From Azolla caroliniana (lineage: Eukaryota > Plantae > Polypodiophyta), in assembly GCA_043228905.1 (NCBI GenBank), contig JBHGNT010000001.1, positions 18,538,001 to 18,602,000 of the forward strand: DNA of 64,000 bases, in the 5' to 3' direction. The translations under genes were made by a program, and so were the position numbers. Positions 4,500 to 53,075 of the stretch are shown in pieces. The notes under the pieces are model-generated. The model searched no databases. It saw only the letters and a list, made by a program, of their open reading frames with translations, and was not told the DNA's origin. The first letter of the stretch is position 1. Every line of letters starts with the position of its first letter.

Positions 4500-5900
4500 T
4501 TAGGAGGGACAGAATCCTAACAAATACTTCCTTAAAGATGGATACCTTTGGGAACACCCAAAGAAATAGAAAGGAACTCCATTGCATGTTGTATGTAAGA
4601 AAGAAGAGCAACAGACACTTTTAATTGAGTTCAACGATAATGCTCGGGCAGAGCATCGAGGAATATGGGTGACTTTCACAAAGTTAAAAGAAAGGTATTG
4701 GTGGCCAAGATTCTACAAAGATGTGTCAAGTTATGTCGAGACATGCAAAGAATGTCGGATTTACTCGATGGATACCTTTGGAAGCACCCAAAGAAACAGA
4801 AAGGAACTCCATTGCGTGTTGTATGCAAGAAAGAAGAGCAACAGACACTTTTAACTGAGTTCAACGATAGTGCTTGGGCAGAGCATCAAGGAATATGGGC
4901 GACTATCGCAAAGTTAAAAGAAAGGTATTGTTGGCCAAGATTCTACAAAGATGTGTCAAGTTATGTTAAGAAATGCAAAGAATGTCGGATTTACTCGAAT
5001 ATTCACCATGGAGATGAGCTTCACTCCACCTATTCGTTATCGATACACTACAAATGGATGGTAGACAATGTAATGAGGCCATTAGGACTATGGCAGATGA
5101 GATACCTTGTCTTAACAAGAGAGGATCTCACAAATCAAGTGAAGGGTCATGCATTGAGAAATAAAACGACATCAGTAGTATGTCGATTTCTTCTAGAAGA
5201 TGTCATATGTAAATATGGATGTGTCAGGAAGATAGTAGCAAATAGAGGCAAGTTGAATGTTAATGAATCCAAAGAGTTCTTTTCAAGAATCAGGGTCAAG
5301 CTATCACTTACTAAAGCTTACAACCCAAAGGCGAATGGGAAAGTACAACGGGGTCACTGACCTATTGTGAAGGCATTAGTAAAGTCTTGTGTTGGGAAGC
5401 TATGCGAATGGCCTAAATTGCTACCATATGTGTTGTGGGTTGATAGGACAACACACAACATCATCACTCGGTTTATTCCAACAGAGCTCACTATCGGTAC
5501 GAAACCTGCATGCCAATAGAGAAAAACATCCTTTCATGGGCCGCTTTACCATGGTAAGATGGAATGAGTAGAGAAGACTCGCTAGCCACAAGGATCCGAT
5601 TACTAGAGCAAAGACCTGAAGATGTCGAAATGGCAATCGACCGCGTAAAGAAAGTTCAACCAAAGAACAAAGAAGCTTTCTATAAAAAACACCAACTTTG
5701 CCCAAAGAAGAAAGAAGAAGGCGATTGGGTTTTAGTCTATGATGGTAGCTTGGACCATATGTACTAAAGACAGTAGAAGATAATGCCACTTATCAGTTTA
5801 TGGAGTTAGATGGTACTTATCTTGTTGTACCTATTGCAGGGAAAAAGACTTAAAATCTTTAAGGAAAGAGAAATGGCAAGTGTTTACATAGAGTTACTAA
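4500..5900 (+). pseudogene. Degenerate integrase of the TGTCG/tRNA-Trp Gypsy family, with a 230-bp tandem duplication (4537-4766, 4767-4996)
   Basis: Peptides match the intact pol at 18747-22214 (REDLTNQV.G.ALR.KT, AYNP.ANGK, WVLVYD.SLD). Confidence 0.85.
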
Positions 5901-5949
5901 ACATCAACAAAGATGAGGAATGACAAGAAACCCTACCACCATTGGCACA

Positions 5950-7660
5950 TGTTGAATGAGCAAGCTCAACATGGGCCAGACTAGTTGGACAATCAAGTAA
6001 GCTAGAACAAAATCAACTCGGTTGGCTAGGGCCCACTTAGGGTGACAAACCTAAGCTTCGGACAGGGTTCCGGACCGGATACCAGATTGGCTGAAGAAGC
6101 CGGATATCGGAACATCACACGTGCCAATTAGACCTATTCTTGTAAATAGGCCTAACATAGGTAGTTGGTGTCAAAGGATCTTTTAAGAGCGTTGAAGTAC
6201 ATGTCAGTACTTCCTGACAGAGCTCAATTGAGACAGGGTGATGCAGATAGGTGTCACCGATCACACTATGCCGAAAAAGGAGATCGAGACGAAATGGACC
6301 CCGCACTTGTGATGAAGCACAAGGAAAACCAGATGGGAGTACGTACCACGAAGCCGGAGGAGGTCTAGTACGTAGATTCCAAAGCGTCAAATCATATGAT
6401 GAACCATGTTGAATGGTTCTCAAGCATGGAAAAACCGAAACTACCGGGAGTTGTCAAGACCAGCGACAACACCGTGCACCCCATCAAACACGTGGGCAAT
6501 GTACCGCTCAGCCATGTTGGACAAAAAGGCCTGATGCGGAATGTGCTGCATGTCCCGACTATTGCAAAGAACTTGGTTTCTATCAGAAAAATTGTTGATT
6601 AGGGCATGCGGGTCCGATTTAATCACCACGGTTATTTCATCGAGGATGAGGGTCGGCTGATAGCGTGAGGGCGTAGAGATGCGAGGATATTTATCCTCAA
6701 AACAAATGATGTTGGTGCCACGAAGTTTGTGAAAGGACGAAAGGTCAAATCTGACTTCGACCTATGGCACAAGCGGATCAACCACATCAATTATTAGAAG
6801 CTTCAAGAACTTTAGTTGAAACAGGTGGTTTCCAGACTGCCACAGTTCAGTGGCCGGAGGGCCAAGATATGTGAAGCATGTCAACTTTGGAAGCAACATA
6901 GGCTCCCATTCCCCAACGAAAAGAATCGGAGCCAGAATCGGCTTGACTTAATCCACACAGATGTATGGGGGCCGACAAGTTGTGTAAGCATGGGATGGAG
7001 TCAATACTTTGTGTCCTTCATCACGACTTCAGCCAACACACTTGGGTATTACCTCATAGAGAAGAAGAGCAAAGTCTTCTCCTGTTTCCGGGATCTAAAA
7101 AGCTTAGTTGAAAGGGAAACATAGAGGAAAATCAAGTGTCTACGGTTGGATGGCGAAAAAGAAATTATACTTTTCCAGCCAGTTCACAAGTTACCTACAA
7201 CAGAAGGGAATCCGGAGGGAGTTCTCTGGTAGATACACATCGGAGGAGAAAACCGTGGCCATGAGACAGAACCGAACTCTAGAAGTTGCCAGGGCAATGC
7301 TAGAGGAGAAGAGCATGCCAAACTCTATTGAGCCTACGTTATCCGGACAGCCGTTTATATATAGAATCGGATCTCTGCTCCCGAAGCAAAGGTGTCACCG
7401 CACGAGCTCTATTTCGGGCGAAAGCCGAATTTGACACATCTCAAGGTGTTCAATAGAATCCCATATGTGTATATACCGGATGAGAGACGAAGGAAGTTGG
7501 ATGCCAAGTCAGAGAAATGTATTTTGGTCGGCTACTCACCCGAGCAGAAGAGGTAGAAGTCCTACAACCCCCCGTCAAAGGAAGTGTGAGTAAGTTGTGA
7601 TGGCGTCTTTGACAAATCAACATCTTGGTATTCTCTTCCATCTCCGACCCCTGAAGACTC
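5950..7660 (+). mobile_element. Truncated Ty1/Copia: partial LTR, protease, GAG-pre-integrase and integrase
   Basis: TGTTGA...CAAGCTCAA LTR start shared with the Copias at 12535, 40476 and 55052; YVDSKASNHM; CEACQL.KQHRLPF; LIHTDVWGP. Confidence 0.85.
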
Positions 7661-7867
7661 CTATTGGCCGGTTTGGACGACCAAGTGTGGAAGGGGCGGA
7701 AAATGGCTACGAGTCGAATTAGTAGTGGGTAGGACCAAACGACGCAATAAAGAATCGAGAGTAGGAAATAGTGGATAGAAAAATAGTAAAGTATTGAATA
7801 TGCAACGGTTCACAAAAAGTCATAACCGTCCATGAGCTCTATAAAAAGGGCCATGGAAAGCTTGTGA

Positions 7868-8179
7868 ATGTTGGCCATGAGAGGACAGGTTTTGTATTTT
7901 GCCAAATATGTGCAAAACCCTCAATTGGCGGAAACAATATTGAGGGGGTTAGAGGATGCAAGTTGTTTAGTGGTTCCATATTTGGATGCAATGAGTTGCA
8001 AGCATGTTGTATTGGATGTACCTTCAAATATATTGTTTGATTTTGGATATGTTTATATTCATGAAGATGAGGTACCAGAAAGCCAAGCCAAGGCTCGGGC
8101 CCATCATCATTGGCGATTCATTAAAAATGGTGATTATGGGAGATGGGAGGGGCGTAAGCTCCATGGAACCATCCTCTAA
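7868..8179 (+). pseudogene. Unidentified ORF just upstream of LINE ORF2 (possible ORF1 C-terminus)
   Basis: 103-aa non-repetitive ORF ending 43 nt before the ORF2 ATG; no recognised domain. Confidence 0.3.
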
Positions 8180-8530
8180 GACTCGTAGGCTCGGGTCTGG
8201 TTCGGCCTCTAACATTTGTTAATGAGGCTCCTCGCGTGGAATGTTCAAGGCTTGGGAAGCCCCTTGTACCGAAGATATAGAGGTAGGTTCAGGCAAGCAT
8301 TACAAAAGTCTCTTATGATGTTTCAAGAACATCATTTGAACAAGCAAAGAATAAGGAACTATGGCATTATATTGCCTGGTAGTTGGGAGATGTTTTGGTC
8401 CCCGGGTATTGGCACTAGTGGTACACAAGGCGGGGTGTGTATGGCAAAGAGATCATTGTACCAGGAAGAGCACAATATATTGTATTAAAAAATTTGCATA
8501 CAACTTGGGGTTACTTGAATATTTATGCAT

Positions 8531-11500
8531 TGTCGCGGAATCCACGCGGCCCTCCTGTCTGTATATACTAGGGCCTCAAAAGAAGCATGGAGCATGGCCG
8601 GTCAACCGCGCCCGCGCTCACGGACACACACACATACACACTGGCTACGATCGGCGCCTTTGCACCAACTCACTACGCACGCACCCGCACTTAGATACCT
8701 AGACACCTACGCCACCTCCCGGGACAAACGCACTCACATACGTACGCGGCATTTGACGCAACACCGGCTCCACACAGTCCGAACAACGACCTCTCGTCGC
8801 TAAGCCGCCAGTCAGGAGCACACGGGCTCGCCATAGCGAGTGGGGTCTTGCATGGTGGAGAGGGGTTTTCTACACAGAACCTTCGAGCACACGGGCTCGA
8901 CCTTAGCAACAACGCGGGATAATAGGGACACACACACAGAGATGCGGGGTGGAGAAGCAACCAAACAAAGAGAAAGAGAGAGAGAAGACAATCTATGTAT
9001 TGTTAGCCGCAACGAATACACACACTCACTCACACACAACAAATGAAGCCCTAGCAAGAAACAAAAATAGAAACATAAACGTACTTCGAGGAATAGAAAG
9101 GAAGAAACCCAACACAAGAGGAAAATACAATATTATTATGAAGGAAACCCAAAATGGAACCCGTAGAGGGGAACCTATGGAACCTCAAAAATGAGGAACC
9201 CTTTTACAAAGGACATTCCCTTCCTTTTATAGAACAAGGATAGGGATGCGTAATAATGTGGGATAAATCCCACTTTACATGCCGGATTCTCTGTCCCAAA
9301 TTAATTATTGTTCGGTGCCATAAAGATGCCCCTATCTTAACACATTTTATACAAGGGTAAGTGCACATGATACACTCCACCGATGCCATTAACTTCCCCG
9401 GGTTTTCTCACTATGGTCGTGAATCTTCACGACATCCGGCCCCACCAAACCACATGTCCACCAGTACGTGCCGAATCTGAAGAAGTTGTAGATTCCGGAC
9501 ATAGTGAGCAATTGGCCTTCCCTAATCCGCATTCTGGTTGTCGTGTCGGCCCCTGCCAATCTCGAACCGTCAACTCCGATTCCGTCTCCGTGCTCGCCTC
9601 TCCGTAGACTCATTCGACTTGTCGATAGGTCTTTCGCCACAATCCCCTCTTGTACGTGTGCTCGTCCTGTGGCCCTTCAATCGACCATATGCACGCTCCT
9701 CGCTTCGTCCTGCTCTTCCCTCCGGAAGCTCATTCCTTGGTTGGTCTCCACTCCTAACTCTAAACCCTCGTCGGCCTTCTTCACTTAGTGCCACCGTCAA
9801 TCTCTTGGTCTTATGTTGGCCCCCAATGTTGACCGTCGAAGTATCTAGCCCGGTGTGCCATTCTCCAAACTCGTTCCCGCACACGCTTCGTTGGCCCCTA
9901 CCCGGCTAGTTTGTGCCTTGTCGTTTCTCCGCATATCGGTGTCCTCCACGTCCGAGGAACACCCCGTCCCGTGTTAGCCCGCTCGGCCCCTTTCGTTCAC
10001 CGTCGTTGCAACCAGTTTGGTGCCTTCTGCTCTCCGTCGTCCCCTCACCCCCCTCCAGGTCGTTATCTCGGGCTTGGCTTGCCACACCAGTCGTTGCCAC
10101 TCCGACTGAGCCACCGAGATCTCCAAAGTGGGTGTGGAGGATATTTCTCAGGCCTCTGATGTTGTTTCCAGCCACCGACCCAAGTTACCTGTTTTACGCC
10201 CGGTTTACGTCCCAGCACCTCCGTGTGCCGTCTCGTTCCTTCCTTGTTCGTCACCACCTATGCCGAACACCAACCCGTATCTGTGCCTTTACCTCGGCCC
10301 TCGATGGCCACGCGCACATCTTTCGTTCCTCTTCCGGGTGTGCCCTTTTCGACTCAACACACCGCTCCCCACTTGGGTGTCCTTGGTAGCTTTCCATGCT
10401 GCTACCCACGAAGGATCACCCTTTCCCATTTCGGCTTGCCTGGCCTTCGTTTCCCTTGCGACGCCTTGGTTGCTTGGTGCCTATGTTGCTACTGCCTTCT
10501 TCCCCTCACCGCCACCATCAGTCTCTTGGTCTTACGTTGGCTCCTGATGCCAACCGCTGAAGTCTCTAGATCCGGGTGGAGGATCCTTCTCGGGCCTTCG
10601 ATCCGTTAGGCCACCGACTCGTGCACCAAGCGCGTCCAATCTTTGTCCTTCTGACCCGGCTGATCGAGTCTCTTGGTCTTACGTCGGCTCTCAATGCCGA
10701 CCGCTGAAGTCTCTAGCCTAGTGTGAGGTGAGCCATAAGTTCAGTCTTCATTCCTCCGCTCTCTCTTTGCACTTCTCTCGGACTCGTCTTCGTCCCCCTT
10801 CATGCGCTCCCGCTGCCATCTCCCTTCTTTCTGGTTTTACGTCGACTCCCGATGCCTGACTGCCGAAGTCTCCGGAAAACATGTGGGGATACCGATTCCG
10901 AAACGACTCCCGACGACTTTGTCCGAGGCCACTGACTTGTTCGTGCTATCGGTGGAAAGCACCTGCTTTATGATCGAGCAAACCCCAACTGGGCGTGCTT
11001 CTCCGATGTCCGGCGTTTCGGCCTCGTTGCCGAGCCTGCTAGATTTGTTCTGCTCCTTCGATCATCTCCTTCCCGGTTTTCAACCTTTGCCCGGCCGGTC
11101 ATTCTCCCTTTGTAAAAGATGCGGCTCGTCCCGCACCCTCTCCCTCATCTCGTACCGTCGTACCTCAATTGGCCTCCGCCTCCACCACGTACGTCTTGTC
11201 CATGCGCCCCCTTCCTGTTGTGATGTCGTGCTGTCACACGCCATCTCCGTTTTCCTTTACTAGGTGGCCACACTCTGTGAGCTTCTCCAAGCTCTTTTCT
11301 CCACCGGCCGGTTGATGCTTCGACAGAACTCGTGGGACTCCGTCCCCGTTGAAATGGTTGACTTCTTCGACCTTGCTCATCTTGTTGCGCCGCTTCTCGC
11401 CTCTTCTTCTCGAAGTCTTTGTCTTCCAACTCCATCCTCCCTTGCCACCCTTCACGTCGGGTTCACCAAAGATGTCGTGGAATACCGTGCTTGCATGTCG

Positions 11501-13865: not shown

Positions 13866-15675
13866 CGGCTACTTCTTACTACTCCATGTGATCCCCGCAC
13901 TTCCCAATGAGAAGACATATCCGGATGTGGATCTACGATCGTGGGCATTTCCGGCCCAATCGACATCTGTGTAGCCAATTAACTGTTCGGCTACGCCTGT
14001 ACGATACAACAACGCCATGTCTTTCGTGCCACGGACATACCATAATATTCTCTGCATGCACTAAAGTTGTTCGGTCGTGACTGCGACATAAATTGATTGA
14101 TCATTCCAACCGGATAGCTAAGGTCCGACTGAGTGATCGTCAAGTAGATGAGGCTTCCGACAATCGGTCGAAACCGTGTTGGGTCGCATGCCTTTCTTGA
14201 ATCTCGGCGAAGCTTTACATTTCATCGAGAGGGGCCGAGATGGGCTTACAATTTGCCATCTCGAACGTGAAAAGCATATTCAACGCGTAATGACACTAAC
14301 TAATCAATATGCCTTTGGGGGAACGGATCACTTCGATCCCGAGGAATTAATGAAGGTCTCCAAGATCCTGCATTTCGGAGGATGTCGTGAGTTGAGACTT
14401 GACGCGACCGATTTCTTCCAAGTCGGCACCAGTGATAACTAAATCATCAACATAAAGTAAAAGGCTAACCAGTCCATGTTGACCTTGCCCAGTGAACAGT
14501 GAAGAGTCCGACATGGACGTTGTAAATCCCATTCTACACAACCGTTGTGTAATCTTCACGTTCCAAGCTCGCGGGGCTTGCTTAAGTCCGTATAATGCCT
14601 TCTTCAATCAGCAGACTGCCGAAGTGTTCTGTTCAAATAGAAATCTGGGGGGCTATACACATGTTCCTCAAGATCGCCTTCCAAGAACACATTTTTTACA
14701 TCCATCTGATGTAAGTGCCACCCCTTCACCACTGCTACGGCTCGCAAAACACGCACCATGGTCATCTTCACGACCGATGCAAACATCTCGTCGTAATCTA
14801 TGTCATGCTTCTGCACGTAGCCTTTCGCAACCAAATGGGCCTTATATCGATTGACGAACCCGTCAATGTTGTATTTCACCTTATACACCCATCTACATCC
14901 GATCAGCTTTACACCCTTCGGTGCGTCAACTAGGTCCCAAGTCTCAATGTCCGTTAATGCGCGCATCTCTTCCTCCATCGCGGCACGCCATTTTGCATCT
15001 TTCGCCGCTTCTGCATAGCTCTCCGGCTCACGCACTTCCGCCAGGCGTGTCATGTATGCATAATGATGCGCCATGTACTCATTGTACCCATACCTCTTTG
15101 TGGGGTTCTTCAGGCGGGTAGATCAGAGTAATTCTTGATTACCCAATTTCACGGCCTTTTCGGCCAATTTCGACCATCTCCTCGGTTCTTTATGCGGGGA
15201 CAACACAGTCGAGTCTCCACTACTCGCCGGCTGTTCATTTGGTTGACCATCTCGGCTCAACCCCTCATTCGGCCCGCTTAGCCGAAATGAGATTGGACTC
15301 TCTGTCAAAGCTCCAATTTCCTCATCACGCAGAGGCAGCTCGGCCTCACTAACCTCTTCTTCAAAATTCGGAATGGAGTCATCAAGGATTGGAGGTGAAG
15401 GCAAGTACCACGAAGCAGACTCGTCGAACACGACATCTCGGCTTACACGAACTTCCTTTGTTCGGGGTTTATAACACTTATACCCCTTTTGTTCATATGA
15501 ATAGCCGACCAATATGCACTTTTCGGCTTTGGCGTCCAGCTTCCTTCGTTTCTCCTTCGGCACATGCACGTACACGATGCTACCGAAAATGCTCAAGTGT
15601 GCCATTCTGCAAGTATCCATCCATCTTTATGGCTTCAGCCCAATAAAACTTCTCTTCAAGCATCACCCTAACCGT

Positions 15676-16539
15676 TGTCGTAGTGTAGGTTGCACACTAT
15701 GTGGAAATTATATTTGTGTCCCTCCGGATAGAGAATGGAGTGCTCGGTGAGAACCGGAGGAAAAACGGCATACCGGCAAGGAGGGAAAACGGTATACCGG
15801 CAAGGAAGAAAACGGCATACCGGCAAGGAGGAAAAACGGTATACCGGCAAGGAAGAAAACGGCATACCGGCAAGGAAGAGCCGGATAAAGAGACATAAAC
15901 GTAAAAGAAAAGGAAATACTCAATACTGCGCAGGGCGTGATTCGAACTCTGCACCTCCACGTTGACAAACCCCAACCTTACCATTACATTAACTTATCTT
16001 AAGTGTTTTAAATATAGATTTCATAGGTATAAGACCTTTATTTATGCATACCTTTATTAAAAGGTAAATCGTGTATTTCTTTAATATATGAAAAAGAAAA
16101 AACACGAGACACTAAAAATAACTCATGCACATCTAGCGTGCATGAGCACTATATTTAGCAAATAAAAGCAAGGATTAGAAAAGCATCACATGCATATTTA
16201 GTGTGCATGAACATATGAGAAAAAGCATGTAGCTATGCTTAGTCTCTCCCATCACTATATAAGGATGGGGAGCACATTGTAGTTGTTGTTGATTATTTGG
16301 ATTAAGAATTAATCAATACAAAAATTATTCGTGGGATTGACGATTTATACATCTACTTCTCTCTTAACACCCTAAGTACCAATTAATATAGTATACTCGT
16401 GTGATTCACGAGTTTCTTATCCTTCTCTTTGCTATTTACTCATAATTAATCTCTATCTCACGAACTCCTTTCTCCTAGTCCAAGACCTCTGTGGTTCCCA
16501 CCCGACTCACGCAACGATCCGGAGCCGAAAGGCACGACA
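15676..16539 (+). repeat. 5' LTR with five ~22-24-bp tandem repeats (AAAACGG(C/T)ATACCGGCAAGGA) at about 15760-15880
   Basis: Direct repeat of 22202-23070; CTATATAAGG near 16255. Confidence 0.95.
15903..15991 (-). promoter_or_regulatory. tRNA-like Pol III cassette antisense within the LTR (also present in the 3' LTR at about 22429-22517)
   Basis: Minus strand: TAATGTAATGG (15991-15981), AGTTCGAATCA (15948-15938), 43 nt apart, followed by TTTTCTTTT. Confidence 0.6.
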
Positions 16540-16544
16540 CAAGT

Positions 16545-16562
16545 TGGTGAACCCGACGTGAA
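16545..16562 (+). other. Primer-binding site complementary to the 3' end of plant cytosolic tRNA-Trp
   Basis: TGGTGAACCCGACGTGAA is the reverse complement of ...TTCACGTCGGGTTCACCA (tRNA-Trp 3' end, from recall). Confidence 0.85.
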
Positions 16563-16578
16563 GACGGGTGGCAAGGAG

Positions 16579-18612
16579 ATGGAGGCTCAACAAGCTAACA
16601 ATATGATGGCGATGTTCGAACGGATGCTTCAAGAACAACGCACGATGTCGGAGATTTCGGCATCAGTAGAGCGGCTCGTGCAACGCAACGGGCAATTTAA
16701 TGGTAAGGATGTGTCGCGATATTTGCAGGACTACAAGGCGGAGATGCTCCGGTGCCGGGCTTCGGAAGGACTGCAAGTGACATCCTTTAACCGGGTGGCG
16801 ACCGACGGGCTTCAAGGGAGTATCCACGGGTTGCAACAACAAAATCCGACGTGGGAAGCATTCGAAGAGGCGTTAAAGACCACGTTTGCCATCGAGGACT
16901 CCTCCAAGGCAACGCGGAGGGGATTCGAGGATTGGGTGGAAACGTCAGGTAAGGGGCTGAAGGTCCTCGAAGTGTTTTCGGCATTCGAAAGTCGGTTCGG
17001 GAGGTTGTCCGCGAGAGATCAAACTATTCTTGCACCGGACAAAGTCATCATGTTTTTGCGAGCTGTGGACGTCCGGGACCGGAAAGATCTCGGAGTGCTT
17101 CTTGAGGACACGACCACCGAAAGCGGCCTCACCGAAACATGGGAAAGCGTGCGGGATATCGTCGCGCGGTACACGAAGAGGGGGCAATGGCTTGCCAACG
17201 AAGAAAAGAGGGTTTCGGAACCGATTCCGAAACCGAGAACGGGACTGGAAGACCATCAACCGAGGGCTCGGGAGATTACGGCCGAGAAGGGAGTCGACGC
17301 GTCTACGGTGGAGCAGCTGCTGAAGGAGATGGAGAATCTAAAGATCGCGATGGTGAAGAAGTCGGATGACCGCCCCACAAGCTCCAAATATACGGATCGA
17401 CGGTGCATATGGTGCGATAGCGCCGAACACGATCGGAGGGATTGCGACGACCATAAGGAGGCGCTACGACGGGATCTCATCTACTACGAGGGAAACCGGA
17501 TTCATTCGATGGACTCTCGGAAGCCACTCCGACCGAACTTCCGGAAAGGCGGCATGAAGAAGGTGCTCGAGGAGGAGTTAGCGGCAAGAAGCAACTATGC
17601 GACAACCGCGGGAATATGTGTCGGGGAGTCATCGGGAGCGAAGGCGTCTTTCTGGCCGGAGGTGCTAGGAAACACCGAGAAAACCGACTCCAACGATATC
17701 CGAAACACCGCGGAAGGCGTCCGGGAAGCTACGGGATGGGAGTGCCCTGTCGACAAGAATAGCATATACGCCCTGTGTCAATTACATGAGGTGTATGTGG
17801 ACGAGAAACGACGGCGCACGGAGGATGCGGCCGGACCATCGAAGATACCGGAAAGCTGGAACTCCGGAGGTAAGGGAAAAGAAAAGGCGACTCCGGCATT
17901 CAAGCTCGCCTCGGACATAGAACAACAAACCGACTTGAAAAGAGTGTTCGAGGAAAGAATCTTGGATAGCCGGGTAGATTTTTCGCTGCGGGAACTACTC
18001 GGAATAGCGAAGAAGGAGTTTCACGATCTTCTCGTGGATCTCGTGAAAAGGAAGAGACAAAGTACGGAGGAAAATGCTCCAAGGGTGAATGCAAATACCG
18101 TTTCAATGAACGACACCGAAGTGGAAGGCGAAATTCCGAACTCCCACTATACAAGGCCACACTGGGCACGTGCGACTACGGAGACTCCGGTCCGAATCGG
18201 CAACATCAAAGAACCCGTGCTAGCATTGATTGATCACGGATCGGAGATCAACTTGATGTCCAAGGAGTTCTACCGAAAGGGGAAGTGGCCTATAAACACC
18301 AACCATGGATGGAAGATTCGGGCAGCCACGAAAACGACAGAAGACCTATTTGCGGCTTGTCCGGATGTGACGGTAAAGATCGGGGATGTCGAAATTGACC
18401 AAAATTTCTTTGTGCAGGATGAGGTTTCACATTCTGTCATCCTCGGCCAACCCTTTATCACGGCTTCACGGATGGAGACGAAGGTGCTCGATAGTGGTGC
18501 GGCTTTTGCGCGAATTCGGAGCCAAAACGGAGGGAAATCCGTCCAAACGGTGCCAGCAAATCACGAAAGGAACAAGAGGGAACTCTTGTCCCAAGTGAGA
18601 ATGGATTTTTAA
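16579..18612 (+). CDS. gag: Gag-protease polyprotein
   Basis: Open frame with first ATG at 16579; zinc knuckle CIWCDSAEHDRRDC; aspartic protease LIDHGSEINL...VILGQPF. Confidence 0.9.
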   Translation: MEAQQANNMMAMFERMLQEQRTMSEISASVERLVQRNGQFNGKDVSRYLQDYKAEMLRCRASEGLQVTSFNRVATDGLQGSIHGLQQQNPTWEAFEEALKTTFAIEDSSKATRRGFEDWVETSGKGLKVLEVFSAFESRFGRLSARDQTILAPDKVIMFLRAVDVRDRKDLGVLLEDTTTESGLTETWESVRDIVARYTKRGQWLANEEKRVSEPIPKPRTGLEDHQPRAREITAEKGVDASTVEQLLKEMENLKIAMVKKSDDRPTSSKYTDRRCIWCDSAEHDRRDCDDHKEALRRDLIYYEGNRIHSMDSRKPLRPNFRKGGMKKVLEEELAARSNYATTAGICVGESSGAKASFWPEVLGNTEKTDSNDIRNTAEGVREATGWECPVDKNSIYALCQLHEVYVDEKRRRTEDAAGPSKIPESWNSGGKGKEKATPAFKLASDIEQQTDLKRVFEERILDSRVDFSLRELLGIAKKEFHDLLVDLVKRKRQSTEENAPRVNANTVSMNDTEVEGEIPNSHYTRPHWARATTETPVRIGNIKEPVLALIDHGSEINLMSKEFYRKGKWPINTNHGWKIRAATKTTEDLFAACPDVTVKIGDVEIDQNFFVQDEVSHSVILGQPFITASRMETKVLDSGAAFARIRSQNGGKSVQTVPANHERNKRELLSQVRMDF

Positions 18613-21600
18613 AGCGGACTGTTGCGGAGTGGGGAAGTGATAGTCCGAGAAGCCTTGATACCCCACACAGGAAGAAAACTCTCGGAGCAAAACAAGTACG
18701 AATCGGCCCGGATGGGGCATCTACGTACACGGCCGTAACCGGAGGAATGAAGAAACAATACCGACAAGTGGAGGATAAGTTACGGTCGGCATCAATAATA
18801 AAAGAAGATGAAGAAATCGTGGGAGTGATCGAGGAAGTGTTCTATGGGAATACACTACAACGGCTTGAAGAGCTTGCGGAAGATAAAAGCCAAGGGAACC
18901 GGGTAGTCCCGGTGGAATCGGTCGAGATGTACGAGATCGTTGCGAAAATGGGGCCGGATGCGCTCCGCAAAGAAGAAGCAATGGTAAGTACGAGATACAA
19001 GACCGTGGAGAAAAAGGTGAAACCGGCCGCGGGACCACTACCCGCCGATAGCGAACAAAAGAAGAAAGAAGTCTCGGGAGATCCGACACTTCGGAAGTCC
19101 GTGGATATCGGACATGCCTTCACAGATGAGACCCGGAAGAAACTTCGGATCGGTGGAGGTGGGTTCCTCTTACAAGAAGAAGAAAAACGGTTTCGAGAGA
19201 TGTTGGAGCAACATGGCAAAGCATTCGCGTTCACATCGAGGGAGATCGGATGCATTGATCCAAAGATAGTGGAGCCGATGGTGATTTTCACGATTGATCA
19301 TGTACCGTGGAACCTGAAGCCGATTCCGGTGCCACGGGCGCATATTCCGAAAGTCATCGACTTGCTCAAGGAGAAGGTGGCGATGGGGATTCTAGAGCCA
19401 TCAAGTGCTCCGTACTCAAATCGATGGTTTACGGTTCCGAAGAAGAATGGGTCACTCCGATTCATCCAAGACTTGCAACCGGTGAACAAGGTCACGATCC
19501 GGAACTCGGGAGTCGGTCCGATAGTGGACGAATTCGCGGAAGCTTTTGCCGGACGTGCGATATACTCCATCGGGGACCTATACTCGGGGTATGACCAATT
19601 CCAACTAGCCGTGGAGAGCCGAGACATCACTACCATGCGGACACCGATAGGACTAGTTCGAATGTGCACACTACCACAAGGAGCGACAAACTCGGTTGCA
19701 CATATGATGAACGCGATGAACAAGGTGCTTCGAGATTGCATCCCGGAGATAACGATGCCGTTTCTAGATGACATTCCGATGAAAGGATGCGCGGTGGAAG
19801 AAAAAGATGAGACTATGGATGATCGGGGATGCCGAAAGTTCGTGGTCGACCATATTCATGATTGCGAGAAAGTGTTGCGAAAGCTAGAAGATGTGCACCT
19901 AACACTTTCCGGGGAGAAATCGGCATTCGGGCAAGAAGAAATATTGGTGGTCGGACATCTATGTGGACCCTACGGCCGAAGACCGTCACCAACAAAGATC
20001 GATGCGATTCAAGCTATGAAGGAAGTATGTGAGTCAACATCGGAAGTCCGAAGGTTTCTGGGTGCGTGTGCATTCTATCACATATGGATTCCGCACTATG
20101 CACATATAGCGGACCCGCTCTATCACTTGTTGCGGAAAGGTAAGAAATTCGAGTGGAAACCGGAACACACTAAAGCCATGAGGAAGCTCAAGAAGACACT
20201 ATGGAGGGCGGAATCACTTAAGAAGCCAAGCTACGAGCGGCCAATCATAGTAACGGTTGATACAAGTCCAACCGGTATCGGGTGGGTCATCAATCAAGCC
20301 GACTCGGATGGTTCGCGGTATCCGATCCGATTTGGAGCAAAGGTCCTCAACGAAAGGCAACGCGGATATGCACAAGTCAAAAGAGAATTGTGGGGAGTCG
20401 TGTCGGCGATAAAATCGGATCGGGATTATTTGATCGGAGCTGAAGTGGTGATCGAGACGGATTGTCTTCCGATACTCGGGATGATGCGGTGTTGTACGAT
20501 ACCGGATGTGGCTATGCTAAGGTGGATTGCATATGTCAAGTCACTTAATCCGGAGGTTCGACACATCTCGGGGAAGGACAACGCGGTAGCGGACATGTTA
20601 TCGAGGGCGCGGTTTGAAGACGACATAACCGAATCAGATAATGAAGAAGTTTCCGAAGACTACTTCACATCAGAACACATATGCCGAGTGAACGTGATCC
20701 GAGAATTCCGGGAAGAAGAATACGAGGGGGAAACCTTGATGATCGGGAAGATGCTACAAGAGGTCGAGGATTCAACCAATGATAAAGAAAGGAGAGCCGA
20801 GATCCGAAGGAAGAAGAGGCAAGTCCAAAAGTTCTTCTTGGAAAACGGTTTAATATGGAGGACGCCGAAAAGACCGGATGGGATACCACTTCGAGTAGTC
20901 GGGACGAAAGAGCAACGAAACCGGATAATGTCCGAGTTCCACGAATCCGATTGGGCTGGACATCGAGGAACATGGGCAACTTTTGTGAAAATCAAGCAAA
21001 GATATTGGTGGAAGAACATGTATAAAGATGTCGCGGAGTTCACAGAAAGCTGCGAGAAATGTCAAGTCTACTCCGGGGTCCGACACCGAGATGAGCTGCA
21101 TCCGACATTCTCACCGACAATCAACTTCAAGTGGATGGTCGACATTGTAGCTATGCCGACCGGGATTGGACAAAAGAAATACTTGGTGTTAGCTCGAGAA
21201 GATCTCACAAACCAAGTTGAAGGTCGAGCGCTTCGGAGGAAAACGTGTGCCGCGGTGTGCCAGTTTCTTTTGGAAGAAGTGTTTTGTAGGTACGGCTGCG
21301 TAGGACAAGTGATTGCGGACCGGGGAGAACTCGACTCGGACAAAGCTAGGGGATTCTTCGCCAAACATGGAGTTCGGTTAACGTTGACAACGGCCTACAA
21401 TCCGGAGGCCAACGGGAAGATCGAACGAGGACATAGTCCGATCGTGAAAGCACTTGCTAAGGCATGCGACGGAAGGGTGAAGGATTGGCCACAAATGCTT
21501 CCGTATGCACTATGGGCGGATCGGACGACGCATAGCTCCGTGACCGGTTACATGCCGGCAGAACTCATGACCGGACAAGCACCGGTAATGCCAACGGAAA

Positions 21601-22214
21601 CCGCAATCGCGACATGGACAATACTACCGTGGAAGGAAGAGATGAGCCGGGAAGAACTACTAGCGGTCCGGATACGACAACTGGAGGGAAGACCGAAAGA
21701 TGTAGCGGACGCGTCACGCCGACAACAAGAAGCACGGTTCCGGAACAAAAGCCGGTTCGACACAAAGCACCGACTACGACCGAGGAGGATTGAAGAAGGA
21801 GATTGGGTGATCGTCTATGATAGTAGCTTGGACCATCAACATACAACGATGCGGAAATTCGCGAAAAGGTGGTTCGGGCCGTACGAGGTTCGGAAGGTCT
21901 TCGACAACGGGACGTACCGACTGTCCGAGTTGGATGGAACAATACTACGAGTGCCTATAGCCGGGAAGCGGGTGAAGATTTTCAAGAAGCGGACCGACGA
22001 CAAACCTTATGTGATCCAAGTCGAGGCCGACAACGAGGAGCAATCGGACGAAGACCACAATGATGCGGGAAGCGAAGAAAGTGGATTACAACTCATAGTC
22101 GACATAAGGGGAGAATCGGAGGAAGCTTCGGATGAAGACGGATACGAAGAATCAAGAACTTCGGCACATACCGGAGGATGTGCGGGTTTGGAGGGGGCGA
22201 GTGTCGTAGTGTAG
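18603..22214 (+). CDS. pol: Pol (RT-RNase H-integrase) in the -1 frame relative to gag-pro; first ATG at 18747
   Basis: RT DLYSGYDQ, LPQGATNS, PFLDD; RH VDTSPTGIG, ETDC; IN H..DWAGH...CEKC, VD...DRG...E, WFGPY; the frame is open from 18603. Confidence 0.93.
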   Translation, partial: GFLKRTVAEWGSDSPRSLDTPHRKKTLGAKQVRIGPDGASTYTAVTGGMKKQYRQVEDKLRSASIIKEDEEIVGVIEEVFYGNTLQRLEELAEDKSQGNRVVPVESVEMYEIVAKMGPDALRKEEAMVSTRYKTVEKKVKPAAGPLPADSEQKKKEVSGDPTLRKSVDIGHAFTDETRKKLRIGGGGFLLQEEEKRFREMLEQHGKAFAFTSREIGCIDPKIVEPMVIFTIDHVPWNLKPIPVPRAHIPKVIDLLKEKVAMGILEPSSAPYSNRWFTVPKKNGSLRFIQDLQPVNKVTIRNSGVGPIVDEFAEAFAGRAIYSIGDLYSGYDQFQLAVESRDITTMRTPIGLVRMCTLPQGATNSVAHMMNAMNKVLRDCIPEITMPFLDDIPMKGCAVEEKDETMDDRGCRKFVVDHIHDCEKVLRKLEDVHLTLSGEKSAFGQEEILVVGHLCGPYGRRPSPTKIDAIQAMKEVCESTSEVRRFLGACAFYHIWIPHYAHIADPLYHLLRKGKKFEWKPEHTKAMRKLKKTLWRAESLKKPSYERPIIVTVDTSPTGIGWVINQADSDGSRYPIRFGAKVLNERQRGYAQVKRELWGVVSAIKSDRDYLIGAEVVIETDCLPILGMMRCCTIPDVAMLRWIAYVKSLNPEVRHISGKDNAVADMLSRARFEDDITESDNEEVSEDYFTSEHICRVNVIREFREEEYEGETLMIGKMLQEVEDSTNDKERRAEIRRKKRQVQKFFLENGLIWRTPKRPDGIPLRVVGTKEQRNRIMSEFHESDWAGHRGTWATFVKIKQRYWWKNMYKDVAEFTESCEKCQVYSGVRHRDELHPTFSPTINFKWMVDIVAMPTGIGQKKYLVLAREDLTNQVEGRALRRKTCAAVCQFLLEEVFCRYGCVGQVIADRGELDSDKARGFFAKHGVRLTLTTAYNPEANGKIERGHSPIVKALAKACDGRVKDWPQMLPYALWADRTTHSSVTGYMPAELMTGQAPVMPTETAIATWTILPWKEEMSREELLAVRIRQLEGRPKDVADASRRQQEARFRNKSRFDTKHRLRPRRIEEGDWVIVYDSSLDHQHTTMRKFAKRWFGPYEVRKVFDNGTYRLSELDGTILRVPIAGKRVKIFKKRTDDKPYVIQVEADNEEQSDEDHNDAGSEESGLQLIVDIRGESEEASDEDGYEESRTSAHTGGCAGLEGASVVV

Positions 22215-23070
22215 GTTGCACACTATGTGGAAATTATATTTTTGTCCCTCCGGATAGAGAATGGAGTGCTCGGTGAGAACCGGAGGAAAAACGGCATACC
22301 GGCAAGGAGGGAAAACGGTATACCGGCAAGGAAGAAAACGGCATACCGGCAAGGAGGAAAAACGGTATACCGGCAAGGAAGAAAACGGCATACCGGCAAG
22401 GAAGAGCCGGATAAAGAGACATAAACGTAAAAGAAAAGGAAATACTCAATACTGCGCAGGGCGCGATTCGAACTCTGCACCTCCACGTTGACAAACCCCA
22501 ACCTTACCATTACATTAACTTATCTTAAGTGTTTTAAATATAGATTTCATAGGTATAAGACCTTTATTTATGCATACCTTTATTAAAAGGTAAATCGTGT
22601 ATTTTTTAATATATGAAAAAAGAAAAGAAAAGAAAAACACGAGACACTAAAAATAACTCATGCACATCTAGCGTGCATGAGCCCTATACTTAGGAAATAA
22701 AAAAAAAGCATCACATGCACATTTAGTGGACATGAACACTTTTTGTAAAAAAAAAAGCATGAAGCCATGCTTAGCTCTTCCTTCCTTATATAAGGAGGAG
22801 AGAAATATGTATATGGTTGTTGATTATTTGGATTAAGTATTAATCAATACAAAAATTATTCGTGGGATTCACGATTTATACATCTACTTCTCTCTTAACA
22901 CCCTAAGTACCAATTAATATAGTATACTCGTGTGATTCACGAGTTTCTTATCTTTCTCTTTGCTATTTACTCATAATTAATCTCTATCTCACGAACTTCT
23001 TTCTCCTAGTCCTAGACCTCTGTGGTTCCCACCCGACTCACGCAACGATCCGGAGCCGAAAGGCACGACA
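22202..23070 (+). repeat. 3' LTR of the intact Gypsy
   Basis: TGTCG...CGACA; direct repeat of 15676-16539. Confidence 0.95.
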
Positions 23071-26000
23071 CCGTTTCTTCGATTGTTTGATTCTTCCATT
23101 CAGCTACGCCATTCTGCTTTGGCGTATATCTACACGAGAATTTGCATCGAATTCCCTCCTTCTGTAGGTAACTCGTGAACTGGTCGAAGAAGTACTCCTT
23201 CCCACCATCGGACCATAGGCACTTGATCTTTCGTTCAGTTTCCCTTTCCGTAAGGCTCTTCACCTTTAGGAACCACGTGAAGACTTCGTTCTTTTTCACG
23301 ATCAAGCATGCCCAGGTGTGCCGAGTGAAGTCATCGATGAAGGTTAATTAAGAAGTAACAACTACTACCGAAGCTAACGTTTTGTGTCGTTCCCCACACA
23401 TCCGAATGGATCACATCCAACGGATTTCGACTACGATTACGCTCATTTAAGAATGGAAGTCGGTGTTGCTTCCCTAGTTGGCAGGCTTCACAGACTTCAC
23501 CATTATGACCCGAAATTTTGGCAACCCGAAAACAATATTTTTCGTCTTCATTTCACGAAGGCGTGGGAAGTTAACGTGGCCGAACCACTCGTGCCATAGG
23601 TCGATATCCGATTTGACCTTCTGTCCTTTCGTGAACAATGCGGTCCCGACTTGATTGGTGTTGAGGATGAACATCCTCCCTTCATAGCGTCCCTGCGCGA
23701 TAACGTGGCCTTCCTCTTTGATGTAGCACCTAAGGTGCGTGAATCGAACTTGCATCCCCTAGTCGACGATCTGACCGACCAACACCAGGTTCTTAGTTAT
23801 TGTCGAAACGTGCAACACATTCATAAGTTTCCCTTTCTGCCCGACGTGGCTGAGAGGAACTTCTCGGACATGTTCGATGGTATGCGGAGTGTCATCTCCT
23901 GTTTCGGCCACTCCTTGTTTTTCCGGTTTCTCCAAGTACGAGAACCATTCCTCATGACTTGTCATATAATTTGACGCTACAAAATCAACATACCACACCT
24001 CCCTTAGTTTCGAGGTGTTCACAACCATCGAATTAGCCTTGTGCTTCATTACGAAGGTTGGGCCCGATCAACATCGACTGAAGCTCGAAGAACGAAGGCG
24101 TATTCTCCCTTGTGCAGACTGCCGTTCAGAATGCTCCGAACTTTGATGCTAACCCTCCAAGACAAACCTGCACCATTTCTTCCTCCTCGACTTTCACGTT
24201 CATGGAGGGGACAGAGTCACATATCTCCTTGATTCGGGCCATGTAATCGGCCATAGATAAATCTTTCTGTCGGACATTGTTGAGCTCTTGCCTGAGCTGG
24301 AGCTTCCTGGTCCTTGTGCTAGCGGCGAAAATTCCCTTGAGATTTGCCGACGCATCCTTTGGCATCTTGGCATCTTGAATGTAGCTCAAGAGCTAGTCGC
24401 TCTACTTGCCGCTTGTTCCCAAGCTGAAAAATCTTTGTTTGTTTATTCGGGCATTGTATCATTAGCTCCTTCGACATAACTCCAGTAACCATGACCAAGC
24501 AGGTACGGGTGCATCTTGTATGACCAAGACGCGTAGTTTCCCCTGTCAAGCTTCTCAGTTGGTAGCGAGCTTCCCATTCCTCTGTTCATATTGATGTCTT
24601 ATCCTTGGCTTTTCTGTCGGTTGCAGAGGAGTCTCAACCCTCGCACTCTGAAGAAATCACAAAGAAAGAGAGGGAGAGACAAAGAGCAAAATGAAACTAT
24701 ATTCAAAGTAATTCTCTGTACATATTTTGTGCTCAGTGAGCACCTTTTATACAAGCCTCGACTATTGGGCTGACAGTACTTGACCGCTCAAAAATGAGCC
24801 TTCTACACTAACTCCCAAAACTATTCCTTAAGAGGAATAACGTTCTAACGGCCTTTCGGTTTAAACACCGTCACGGCCATATTTTGCGTACAGTTTTACG
24901 CACCCACTCTACATATTGGGTTATGCACCCATTTACGCACCCAATGTTGAGCTTGTCTCTCAACACAAATCATGCATCGGCTAGGAAACACTTCTGGTGT
25001 GAAATTACAAATGCATTACCAAACGTGTCTCATTGGTCTGTTGCAAGGGATTTTAATATGCTTGAGGACCCGGAGGATAGGAAAGGTGGGAGTGTGGCAA
25101 CAATTCATGGGGAGGAACTAACAGTCTAGGAACGATGTGTTTGAAATTAAGTATTTTGGATGCATGGAATATGCCTAATGTTTATAGATCTCAGGATTCC
25201 TTGAACTTCTCATGTTCTGATAGGAGAATTGGTGGAACCAATCTTTCAAGATTGGATAGATTTTATGTGGGGGAGGCCTTTGTCTTAAATGGGGGAAATA
25301 TCACGATTATGACAGGCACAACTTTCTCTTATCATGCTCCTATTATATTGAGAACCTTTGGTCAATCGAAAAGGGAGTTCATACGATTTAGGATACCCGA
25401 AAAAGTAATGTTAGAAGATAGATGGTATAATCAAGTGATAGATATTTGGCGGAACAAAGATAATATGGATGTTCCCATTACAATCAAAGTGGATTGTGCT
25501 TTGACGAAGATATCACAATATTTTACGTTAAAATCAAGATCTGAATTTATGGAATATCAGGAGAAGGAAAGAAGGATGAGGGCAAGGTTGATATCTTTGC
25601 AAAGATTGCAATAGGATCGCCCAAAGTGTGCATGGGTAGTTTCGCATCTTGAAGAAGCCCGAAAATAGGTTCAACATATGGAAGAATGTCGTAGTCAATT
25701 TTGGTATCACAATTCTACTTCAAGATGGACACAAATTGGGGATAGTACAAGCTAATTTTTTAATATTAAAGGCCCTAAGAGAGTCTCTAATGTAACCTAT
25801 TGTCTACAGAATGAAAATGGTGAACTTGAAATGGGGCCAAATGTTGTGAGGGAAATTGCCACGAAATTCTATGCTACCCTTCTATCACAAGAGCCTATTT
25901 CTAAGTATACCAGACAAAATAGAATGAAGGTATGGGCGGAAATTCAACCCAAGGTTACTCAAGCAATGCAAGATTCATTGATGTCACCTATTACAGAATT

Positions 26001-51480: not shown

Positions 51481-53075
51481 TTCCACATCCTCCGGTCTTT
51501 GCTCGAGCTGCCGGATCCGCGCCGCTAACAACTCCTCCCGGCTCATCTCGTCTTTCCAGTCCACCACAGCCCATGAGGAGATCGTTCGCTCCATTGGCAT
51601 GACCGGCTTCTGCCCGTACATCAACTCCGTTGGCATGAACCCGGTTACCGAACTGTGCGTAGTTCGGTCGGCCCACAACGCATAGGGTAAGAGTCGCGGC
51701 CAATTTCCGACTTGGCCTCCACCTGCCCGCACTAACGCTTTGACGATCAGCTCGTGTCCGCATTCCACCTTTCCGTTCGCCTCCGGATTGTACGCCATGG
51801 TGAGCGAGAGTTCAACCCCTAGCCAGTCATACAACTCTTCAACCTCTTGTGTGTCTAGTTCTCTATGGTCGGCTATGATCTTTCCTACGCACCCGTACTG
51901 GCATACCACCTCTTCGATCAGAAATCAGCATACGCTCGCGATCGTTTTGTTCGTCAGTGCTCGACCTTCCACCTGGTTTGTCAGGTCCTCCCGTGCCAGC
52001 ACCAGGTATCGCATCTGCCCTACCCTCATCGGCATCGTCACCCTCTACGAAGCCCGTCTTTTCTTCAACAGGGTCACTCCACCCGGTTACCTCCCGGACC
52101 CGTCTTTCCGCGCGGTCCGCTTCCTCTTTCCTCAATCGTATGCCAGCGAGGCCTTCTAGCATCAACGGCCAGAACCCAGAGTTCTTCGTCTTCTGGACTT
52201 CGTCGCTCGACCCGGATTCCTGCCGCCGCCGAGTAGTGGACAGTCTCCACGTGGCGAGCCGCCGCTTCTTCCATCAGCCGCTCCATTCCCCCTCGTCCAA
52301 CATTCAATTCCAGGGTCCTCCTGGTTTCTCTAACGTGTACACGCACGCCCATTCCACAGGTACACAACGTTAGACCTTATCACTTCAACGAAATCCCCGT
52401 TGTCCTTCCGGGCGTGGCCGACCGCGTCGCACCATAAGCACTGATGCCCGGCCGAAGGCCTTTGGTCACGGGCTTGTTCGCCATTGTCCCTCCATGCATG
52501 TGCAATCTGGAGGTCCCTCACCATCTGAGTTAGCTCCTCCAGAGCCGCACCTCCGGACGGGCCTTTGACCACGTTGGTCGAAGTCGAGCCGGTGTCTAGC
52601 CAATCTTGGGTCTCCTCCCTTCGTGTCGGTAGGGGTACCTCGAGCTTACTTGCCGCAACAGAGCTTGCCCCCGCCGTGCCTTTATCGACCCAATCTTGCC
52701 GTTTGTTGAAACGGCCGCAGACTCTCTTCACCACGGCCCAATCGGCCGTCAACCCATCGTCGGTCTCCCGCAGGAGGCCCACTTGCTCCCGGTCCCTCAC
52801 GTCCACTGATTTAACAAACAATAGGACACGACTTGTGTCCAGTACGGTCCGGTCTAGCGCCAAAAGATGCGCAAAGAGTTCTTCAAACTCCCGGAGGAGC
52901 ACCGACGCGTTTCTCCCCTTTTCGGGGGGGTCTCCACCCATTCCATGAAGTCTCGCTTCGATAGCTGAAGCGCGTCATCAAGCCCATATTTCTCAAGGAG
53001 TCGACCTTCAAATTCTTCCCAGGTCTGGCTCTCAGCCCGTACCTTGAGCACCTCCGCATGGATGCTCGGCATTGC
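51481..53075 (-). pseudogene. Internally deleted TGTCG-family fragment: gag (53075-52040) fused to the integrase core (52040-51481)
   Basis: DFMEWVETP, FVKSVDVRDRE, CLWCDAVGH; AYNPEANGKVE.GH, LPYALWADRTTHSSVTG, MSREELLA.RIRQLE match the intact element. Confidence 0.88.

Follow-up and report, generated by a model that had tools for sequence, protein, structure and literature searches.

Long terminal repeat (LTR) retrotransposons of plants are generally described as single-open reading frame (ORF) or splice-regulated elements. Oberlin (2017) describes plant elements as mostly single-ORF (PMC5580714), and the passage of a 2016 review that deals with a 2003 survey names only two types of plant element whose frames are split, +1 in each case (PMC5009743). 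A 2025 review mentions frameshifting, in its passages on the subject, only generically. The canonical -1 examples in the 2016 review include gag-pol of Rous sarcoma virus (RSV), the G_GAU_UUU site of pea enation mosaic virus RNA 2, and dianthoviruses (PMC5009743). Natural -2 cases are few, and those listed in the source passages are phage Mu, arteriviruses and Trichomonas virus 1.

Herein, we analyzed a 64,000-nt stretch of the fern Azolla caroliniana (contig JBHGNT010000001.1, positions 18,538,001 to 18,602,000; hereafter the window). The window contains a complete LTR retrotransposon at 15676-23070 (7395 bp), which is a Phygy-like Ty3/gypsy element as judged by its NCGN target duplication and tRNA-Trp primer. 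On the sequence evidence, its pol gene is very probably reached by pseudoknot-stimulated -1 ribosomal frameshifting, and the predicted slip signal is conserved lineage-wide. The mechanism is of a known kind; what is new is the conserved signal in this lineage, plus a sister group with a different frame relation. A viral-type -1 signal would fill a gap in the description of plant elements. The literature searched, with subscription papers, Repbase notes and the 2003 survey outside its scope, contained no account of this signal, nor of -2 shifting in a retrotransposon. The relevant passages of PMC5014426, PMC7466625, PMC11963269, PMC12786077, PMC8310308 and bioRxiv 2022.06.16.496473 hold nothing on this site.

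The gag-pro/pol junction in the window copy

The gag-pro ORF (16579..18612, + strand; 677 aa) ends in Asp-Phe-stop. The slippery heptamer G GAT TTT (18603..18609) is adjoined by the stop codon TAA (18610-18612). The spacer (18610..18615) measures 6 nt to the conserved core of stem 1, or 5 nt when all 11 bp of the stem are counted. An H-type pseudoknot is predicted to follow. Stem 1 (18615-18625/18637-18647; conserved core 18616-18623/18639-18646) pairs at 11/11 positions, three of them as G-U, stem 2 (18629-18634/18661-18666) pairs at 6/6, all Watson-Crick, and the loops are 3, 2 and 13 nt long. The pol ORF (18495..22214, + strand) is in the -1 frame, runs for 1203 codons from the slip site and encodes reverse transcriptase (RT), RNase H and integrase. 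Its first ATG, at 18747, is 144 nt past 18603. We recomputed the coordinates given in an initial annotation of this DNA for the heptamer, the gag-pro stop, the loop pairing and the distance to the first ATG, and all of them matched. That annotation had also taken pol to be open from 18603; the -1 frame was right, but the frame already opens at 18495, which is 115 nt ahead of the gag stop. The heptamer is thus an in-phase X_XXY_YYZ-type site within a 0/-1 ORF overlap, in the G_GA variant that is allowed for such sites (PMC5009743).

The structure was compared with shuffled and control sequences. Stem 1 alone gave a fold z of -4.57, and none of 200 shuffles was as good. The full pseudoknot score of the window copy was exceeded by 0/40 shuffles, and its stem 2 was equalled in 1/62 downstream control windows. 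Two further features lie just upstream. At about 18541-18546, in a conserved post-protease motif, the window copy is 6 nt (two codons) shorter than 29 other copies of its own genome. A hairpin at 18570-18592, just 5' of the slip site, is shared by this family with a few closely related families and was not conserved among 36 representatives.

The signal had initially been placed after the protease. The candidate protease domain (18187..18456, gag frame) matched Pfam Asp_protease_2 with an E value of 2e-4, under the curated cut-off, and a structure model was therefore built. The model had a pLDDT of 82.6, and its top structural matches were Ddi1 RVP and retroviral proteases (best E 6e-6). As modelled, the domain preceding the slip site is a retropepsin fold, so the placement holds. 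The usual retropepsin motif is Asp-Thr/Ser-Gly. Here the putative catalytic position (18232-18240) reads Asp-His-Gly, which is unchanged in all 68 aligned sequences.

We propose that the pseudoknot, six bases ahead, would stall the ribosome with the Asp and Phe tRNAs on GAU UUU. Both tRNAs would then re-pair one base back, perfectly in the A site and at two of three positions in the P site. The slipped minority of ribosomes would continue to give Gag-Pro-Pol, and most ribosomes would terminate at the next codon and release Gag-Pro. Protease would then be produced in step with Gag, leaving RT, RNase H and integrase as the only rationed products. Both the motif and the 5-9 nt spacer agree with the -1 signal as set out in the review passages (PMC5009743, PMC7618472).

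Conservation of the junction and other conceivable routes to pol

We compared the junction across the best 80 of 174 metagenome loci and the window copy (81 loci). The heptamer test was anchored solely on the Gag-Pro protein end, and the motif was not presupposed. An Asp-Phe-stop end was found in 63/81 loci, and all 63 read G GAT TTY (59 TTT, 4 TTC). As a control, G GAT TTY occurred at 6/82 other in-frame Asp-Phe pairs of the same elements. Among 28 representatives, the leading G is the third base of ten different preceding codons, indicating that the constraint acts at the nucleotide level. Other families have G GGT TTT or G GTT TTC, and the signal is conserved between families to about 57% protease identity. 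In the A. caroliniana genome, 30 loci were fetched and 40 of 1188 candidates were scored; the exact signal was present in 30/30 fetched loci, with identical T-run length. A 22-base pattern covering the site and the stem start had 1010 exact genome matches compared with 0 for the control.

The protein ends were also compared. Among 120 homologous Gag-Pro ends, 70 were DF, 4 GF/NF, 25 DF/GF plus five residues and 2 VFD/VFY, and 19 ended otherwise. The named homologues came from Physcomitrium (moss), Riccia (liverwort) and Adiantum (fern), several of those from Physcomitrium ending in DF plus five residues. In a subgroup comprising L088, L092, L101, L103 and L104, the gag stop lies 15 nt past the site, inside stem 1, which gives the DF/GF plus five residues. 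No fungal relative was identified in a 50%-cluster protein search, which returned many fragments, and the 5 pattern matches in a viral contig collection included 0 related sequences.

For the RNA structure, a sequence-only alignment was made of 33/36 representatives, with three decayed ones excluded. The initially annotated structure was paired in 81.5% of cells, compared with 73.9% in shuffled and 39-44% in slid controls. The covariation across family members that the annotation had called for was present: two-sided changes occurred at 14/17 pairs of stems 1 and 2, a result reached in 0/500 shuffles. The outer three pairs of stem 1 were unpaired in 22, 14 and 18 of the 33 sequences. The conserved core is 8 bp, with 7/264 cells unpaired, and RNAalifold recovered it unaided. 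The annotated 11-bp stem therefore pairs throughout in the window copy, but only its inner 8 bp are conserved across families. A per-sequence search detected an H-type knot in 31/36 representatives, each equalled by at most 2/40 shuffles, and distant families kept the knot with quite different stem sequences. The spacer to the stem-1 core was 6 nt in 33/34 representatives outside the -2 group described below (1 not parsed). The structure is thus conserved with compensatory changes at the 5-9 nt downstream distance of -1 signals, stem 2 being weaker when taken alone.

Pol was present in 65/81 loci and missing from 16/81. It lay in the -1 frame in 61/65 loci, 60 of which were open from the site, and it was fused to gag-pro in 0/65. 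The other four comprised two +1 loci with interrupted pol and two intact members of the -2/+1 group. Two other families of the host genome agreed, with 24/30 and 14/20 copies in -1; in the latter family the rest were sister-group copies (4), broken (1) or without pol (1). Fused gag-pol, or an unconserved signal, in related copies would have contradicted the initial annotation; the relatives are unfused, and they keep the heptamer and both stems with compensatory changes.

Several observations weigh against -1 frameshifting as read here. First, G GAU UUU leaves a P-site mismatch after slippage. Second, the fold z was -0.83, +0.72 and -0.72 in 58-, 100- and 141-nt windows, none of them significant; folding of these longer windows is uninformative because the program excludes pseudoknots. 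Third, a strict pseudoknot finder missed 5/36 representatives, and stem 2 alone exceeded 95% of control windows in 21/30 representatives only. Fourth, the stems are coding, the G-run of stem 2 doubling as coding sequence, the covariation and structure controls take no account of common ancestry, and the 80 metagenome loci mostly have accessions from one series. Fifth, the second host-genome family, at 24/30 -1, also holds three +1 copies, one in frame and two without pol. Finally, 13 long homologues are annotated as fused Gag-Pro-Pol, and P0133, a distant single-contig protein, may truly hold Gag-Pro and Pol in frame. Twelve of the 13 fused annotations are eukaryotic gene models. In the eleven models parsed, the junction was irregular (152-268 residues), and 10/11 lacked the Asp-Phe end. 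From their protein sequences, these eukaryotic models probably reflect predicted introns, and the signal, if true, would explain such irregular fused models of these elements.

Pol might instead be reached by splicing out a short intron that spans the stop, the route documented in Ogre, and the window copy does have a donor-like GT at 18595 and the Riccia gene models do bridge the junction. However, the close relative L032 is without this GT, any GT within 50 nt of the site is found in at most 6/28 representatives, and the commonest GT (17/28, offset -53) sits in a conserved upstream coding motif. No conserved splice donor was present near the stop. The junction also lacks the non-coding gap of Ogre, since pol is open from the heptamer in 60/65 loci, and the fixed heptamer, spacer and pseudoknot are unexplained by splicing. 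A GT-AG joint over the site was absent among the joints listed for four contig sets, which are uninformative on expression. We regard splicing as very unlikely.

We give the same slight chance to separate production of pol, by re-initiation or an internal start at a downstream AUG, with the structure serving packaging, dimerization or initiation. An AUG is available 144 nt downstream, and structured RNA within the coding sequence of retroelements can serve other purposes. The distance from the site to the first pol-frame AUG varies by family, however, between 9 and 333 nt. The part of the pol frame that precedes this AUG is under purifying selection, with a dN/dS of 0.24-0.33 in 5/7 pairs (2/7 saturated), and is likely translated. 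Both the shifting AUG and this selection argue against re-initiation, and the heptamer codon choice is fixed.

More improbable still is a frame change at the nucleic-acid level, with RNA polymerase or RT slipping on the T run. The site and stop do form a run of five T, and structure-stimulated RT slippage has been reported (PMC5737552). Nevertheless, families with TTC or a non-T next base still keep the site although their T run is down to three or four, conservation falls on the G at -1 and on the codon phase, and the T run does not vary in length among the 30 host-genome copies. Lastly, although most plant LTR elements have a single ORF (PMC5580714), the idea that the pattern arose by chance as a formerly fused gag-pol decayed has a negligible probability and is refuted by the heptamer conservation down to about 57% protease identity, the 1010 genome matches against 0 for the control and the pol-frame tally.

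A sister group whose pol lies in the -2/+1 frame

The sister group, which the initial annotation does not mention, consists of two metagenome loci (L089:2835-2900 and L091:2497-2560) and one host-genome family (L141-L170 and L214-L217), with Gag-Pro ends of Val-Phe-Asp or Val-Phe-Tyr. Its junction reads AG GTT TTT, followed by a 5-nt spacer, the same length in both representatives, and the same pseudoknot. Pol lies in the -2/+1 frame in 29/30 host-genome copies, 27 of which are open across the junction, and in L089 and L091. An RG_GUU_UUU site is thus followed by a downstream ORF in the -2/+1 frame, and most copies have a -1-frame stop directly past the site. The sister-group pattern had 95 matches in the host genome. 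In a tree of 26 rows (five short rows excluded; midpoint root only), the group was monophyletic and was separated from the other rows by a branch with full support (100/100).

Of four dated copies, two had identical LTRs and two had LTRs more than 99.5% alike, and pol was open for 1154 codons in two of the four. The dN/dS of pol between L089 and L091 was 0.07, and 0.18 in the N-terminal part. From the identical LTRs and low dN/dS, the group is young, its junction is being transposed and its pol is being kept intact.

In arteriviruses, AG_GUU_UUU is the named -2/-1 site (PMC7618472), a GG_GUU_UUU variant is also known, and -2 shifting is favored by spacers 1-2 nt shorter than those for -1 (PMC3458567), according to the passages on these sites. 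The GAU to GUU change would give perfect A-site re-pairing at -2. Judged from these sequences, the shift in the sister group is probably -2. A +1 shift by P-site slippage on GUU U or UUU G/U, or Pol borrowed from -1 families, is a possible but less likely alternative. The +1 and -2 shifts yield the same frame relation, and known +1 shifts include antizyme, with a 3' pseudoknot, and influenza PA-X on UUU_C (PMC3498833). In addition, a single deleted base accounts for the short spacer as well as for the new frame, and the two therefore do not count as independent. By contrast, GUU allows perfect pairing on UUU in the -2 frame at what is the arterivirus -2 site, and the G after UUU in most copies is a poor +1 partner. 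The intact pol under strong selection argues against borrowing.

Taking the -1 and -2 readings together, we judge it somewhat better than an even chance that this lineage of retrotransposons of seed-free plants uses post-protease, pseudoknot-driven -1 shifting and that one still-mobile branch switched to -2 by one slip-site base change and the loss of one spacer base. If true, a transposon would depend on a -2 frameshift that arose naturally, and evolution would have put the spacer-tension model to the test. With the sister group, one genome holds a matched pair in which the same knot has a -1 and a probable -2 outcome, and how spacer length relates to the direction of the shift is thereby directly testable. 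The lineage as a whole supplies dozens of natural pseudoknot variants. A distant Gag-Pro fragment of the liverwort Calypogeia fissa, P0260, also ends in Val-Phe-Tyr and may be an independent -2-type junction.

Element identity and comparison with known systems

The retrotransposon is flanked by the target-site duplication CCGT (15672..15675 and 23071-23074). The 5' LTR (15676..16539, TG...CA) and the 3' LTR (22202..23070) differ by 25 mismatches and 33 gap columns in 884. Gag-pro contains a CCHC zinc knuckle, identified by direct reading of the translation, DUF4100 and the aspartyl protease, and a polypurine tract was read from the sequence at 22190..22201. The LTRs, primer-binding site, polypurine tract and domain order GAG-PR-RT-RH-INT are those of Ty3/gypsy elements. 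All these features lie on the + strand. An Rfam scan of 15600-23200 gave nothing at E up to 1.

The primer-binding site (16545..16561) is complementary to the tRNA-Trp 3' end. Its pattern had 63 genome matches, with a tRNA-Trp(CCA) gene at 3/3 loci checked, so the primer initially annotated agrees with the tRNA genes of the host. Clusters of the tRNA-Trp 3'-end pattern occur at C8:17.80-17.82 Mb, C16:4.99-5.11 Mb and C5:10.11 Mb of the host genome; some have a regular spacing of 0.9-1.2 kb, which suggests tandem tRNA-Trp arrays.

The surroundings hold other elements. A decayed Ty1/copia-like element (14152-15626 and 23071-24400, - strand), recognized by eye from ORF fragments, encloses the retrotransposon. 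Two more integrase-region fragments, from related elements and 53% and 67% identical, lie at 4519-5920 and 51484-52041.

The element shares with Phygy, as described in REXdb, the 4-bp NCGN duplication (CCGT here, GCGT in copy L214), the tRNA-Trp primer and a coding region that fills the interior (PMC6317226). Phygy is described as 7.7-10 kb long and as lacking a chromodomain, an extra RNase H and any extra ORF; no Pfam match to a chromodomain or an extra RNase H was found in the element. Physcomitrium proteins are among the homologues. Its 7395 bp are slightly fewer than the 7656-9968 that REXdb gives for Phygy, for which the entry describes the ORF organization as not determined and gives no recoding signal (PMC6317226). 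Unlike Phygy, relatives of the window element also occur in liverwort and fern.

The layout can be compared with other retroelements. Alpharetroviruses have the protease in the gag frame, shift by -1 into pol and use a tRNA-Trp primer. The review passage did not confirm this protease position and groups RSV with viruses that have the protease in pol. The window element differs in lacking env (pol reaches the 3' LTR), in its heptamer, in Asp-His-Gly and in its distant lineage; the resemblance is one of layout only. The initial annotation had singled out the alpharetrovirus layout as a match. This is not the nearest parallel because, in the REXdb description, Ogre and Retand (Tat) also separate GAG-PROT from RT-RH-INT after the protease (PMC6317226). 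Ogre does so with a spacer/intron and Retand with a single in-frame stop (PMC6317226), unlike the junction here. Selgy and Tcn1 have overlapping frames too, but the overlap precedes the protease, and REXdb's account lists no plant Ty3/gypsy lineage with an overlap after it (PMC6317226).

With canonical -1 signals, the junction shares the G_GA start in an X_XXY_YYZ-type site, the 5-9 nt spacer and the 3' pseudoknot (PMC5009743), as well as a nearby 0-frame stop and a structural protein ahead of the polymerase. G GAU UUU had been ascribed to dianthoviruses; the G_GA type does occur there, and exact G_GAU_UUU is given for an umbravirus (PMC5009743). Dianthoviruses and umbraviruses use long-range pairing, whereas a compact local H-type knot in a retrotransposon is predicted here. 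The sister group resembles the arterivirus nsp2TF -2 site in AG_GUU_UUU (PMC7618472, PMC4937337). The arterivirus stimulator is, in these sources, a protein complex without RNA structure (PMC7618472, PMC4937337), in contrast to the predicted pseudoknot of the sister group, whose shift, unlike that of arteriviruses, would be essential for Pol. Finally, the sister-group spacer is one base shorter than that of its -1 relatives, a likeness to the spacer-dependent -2 shifting described on U6A (PMC3458567).

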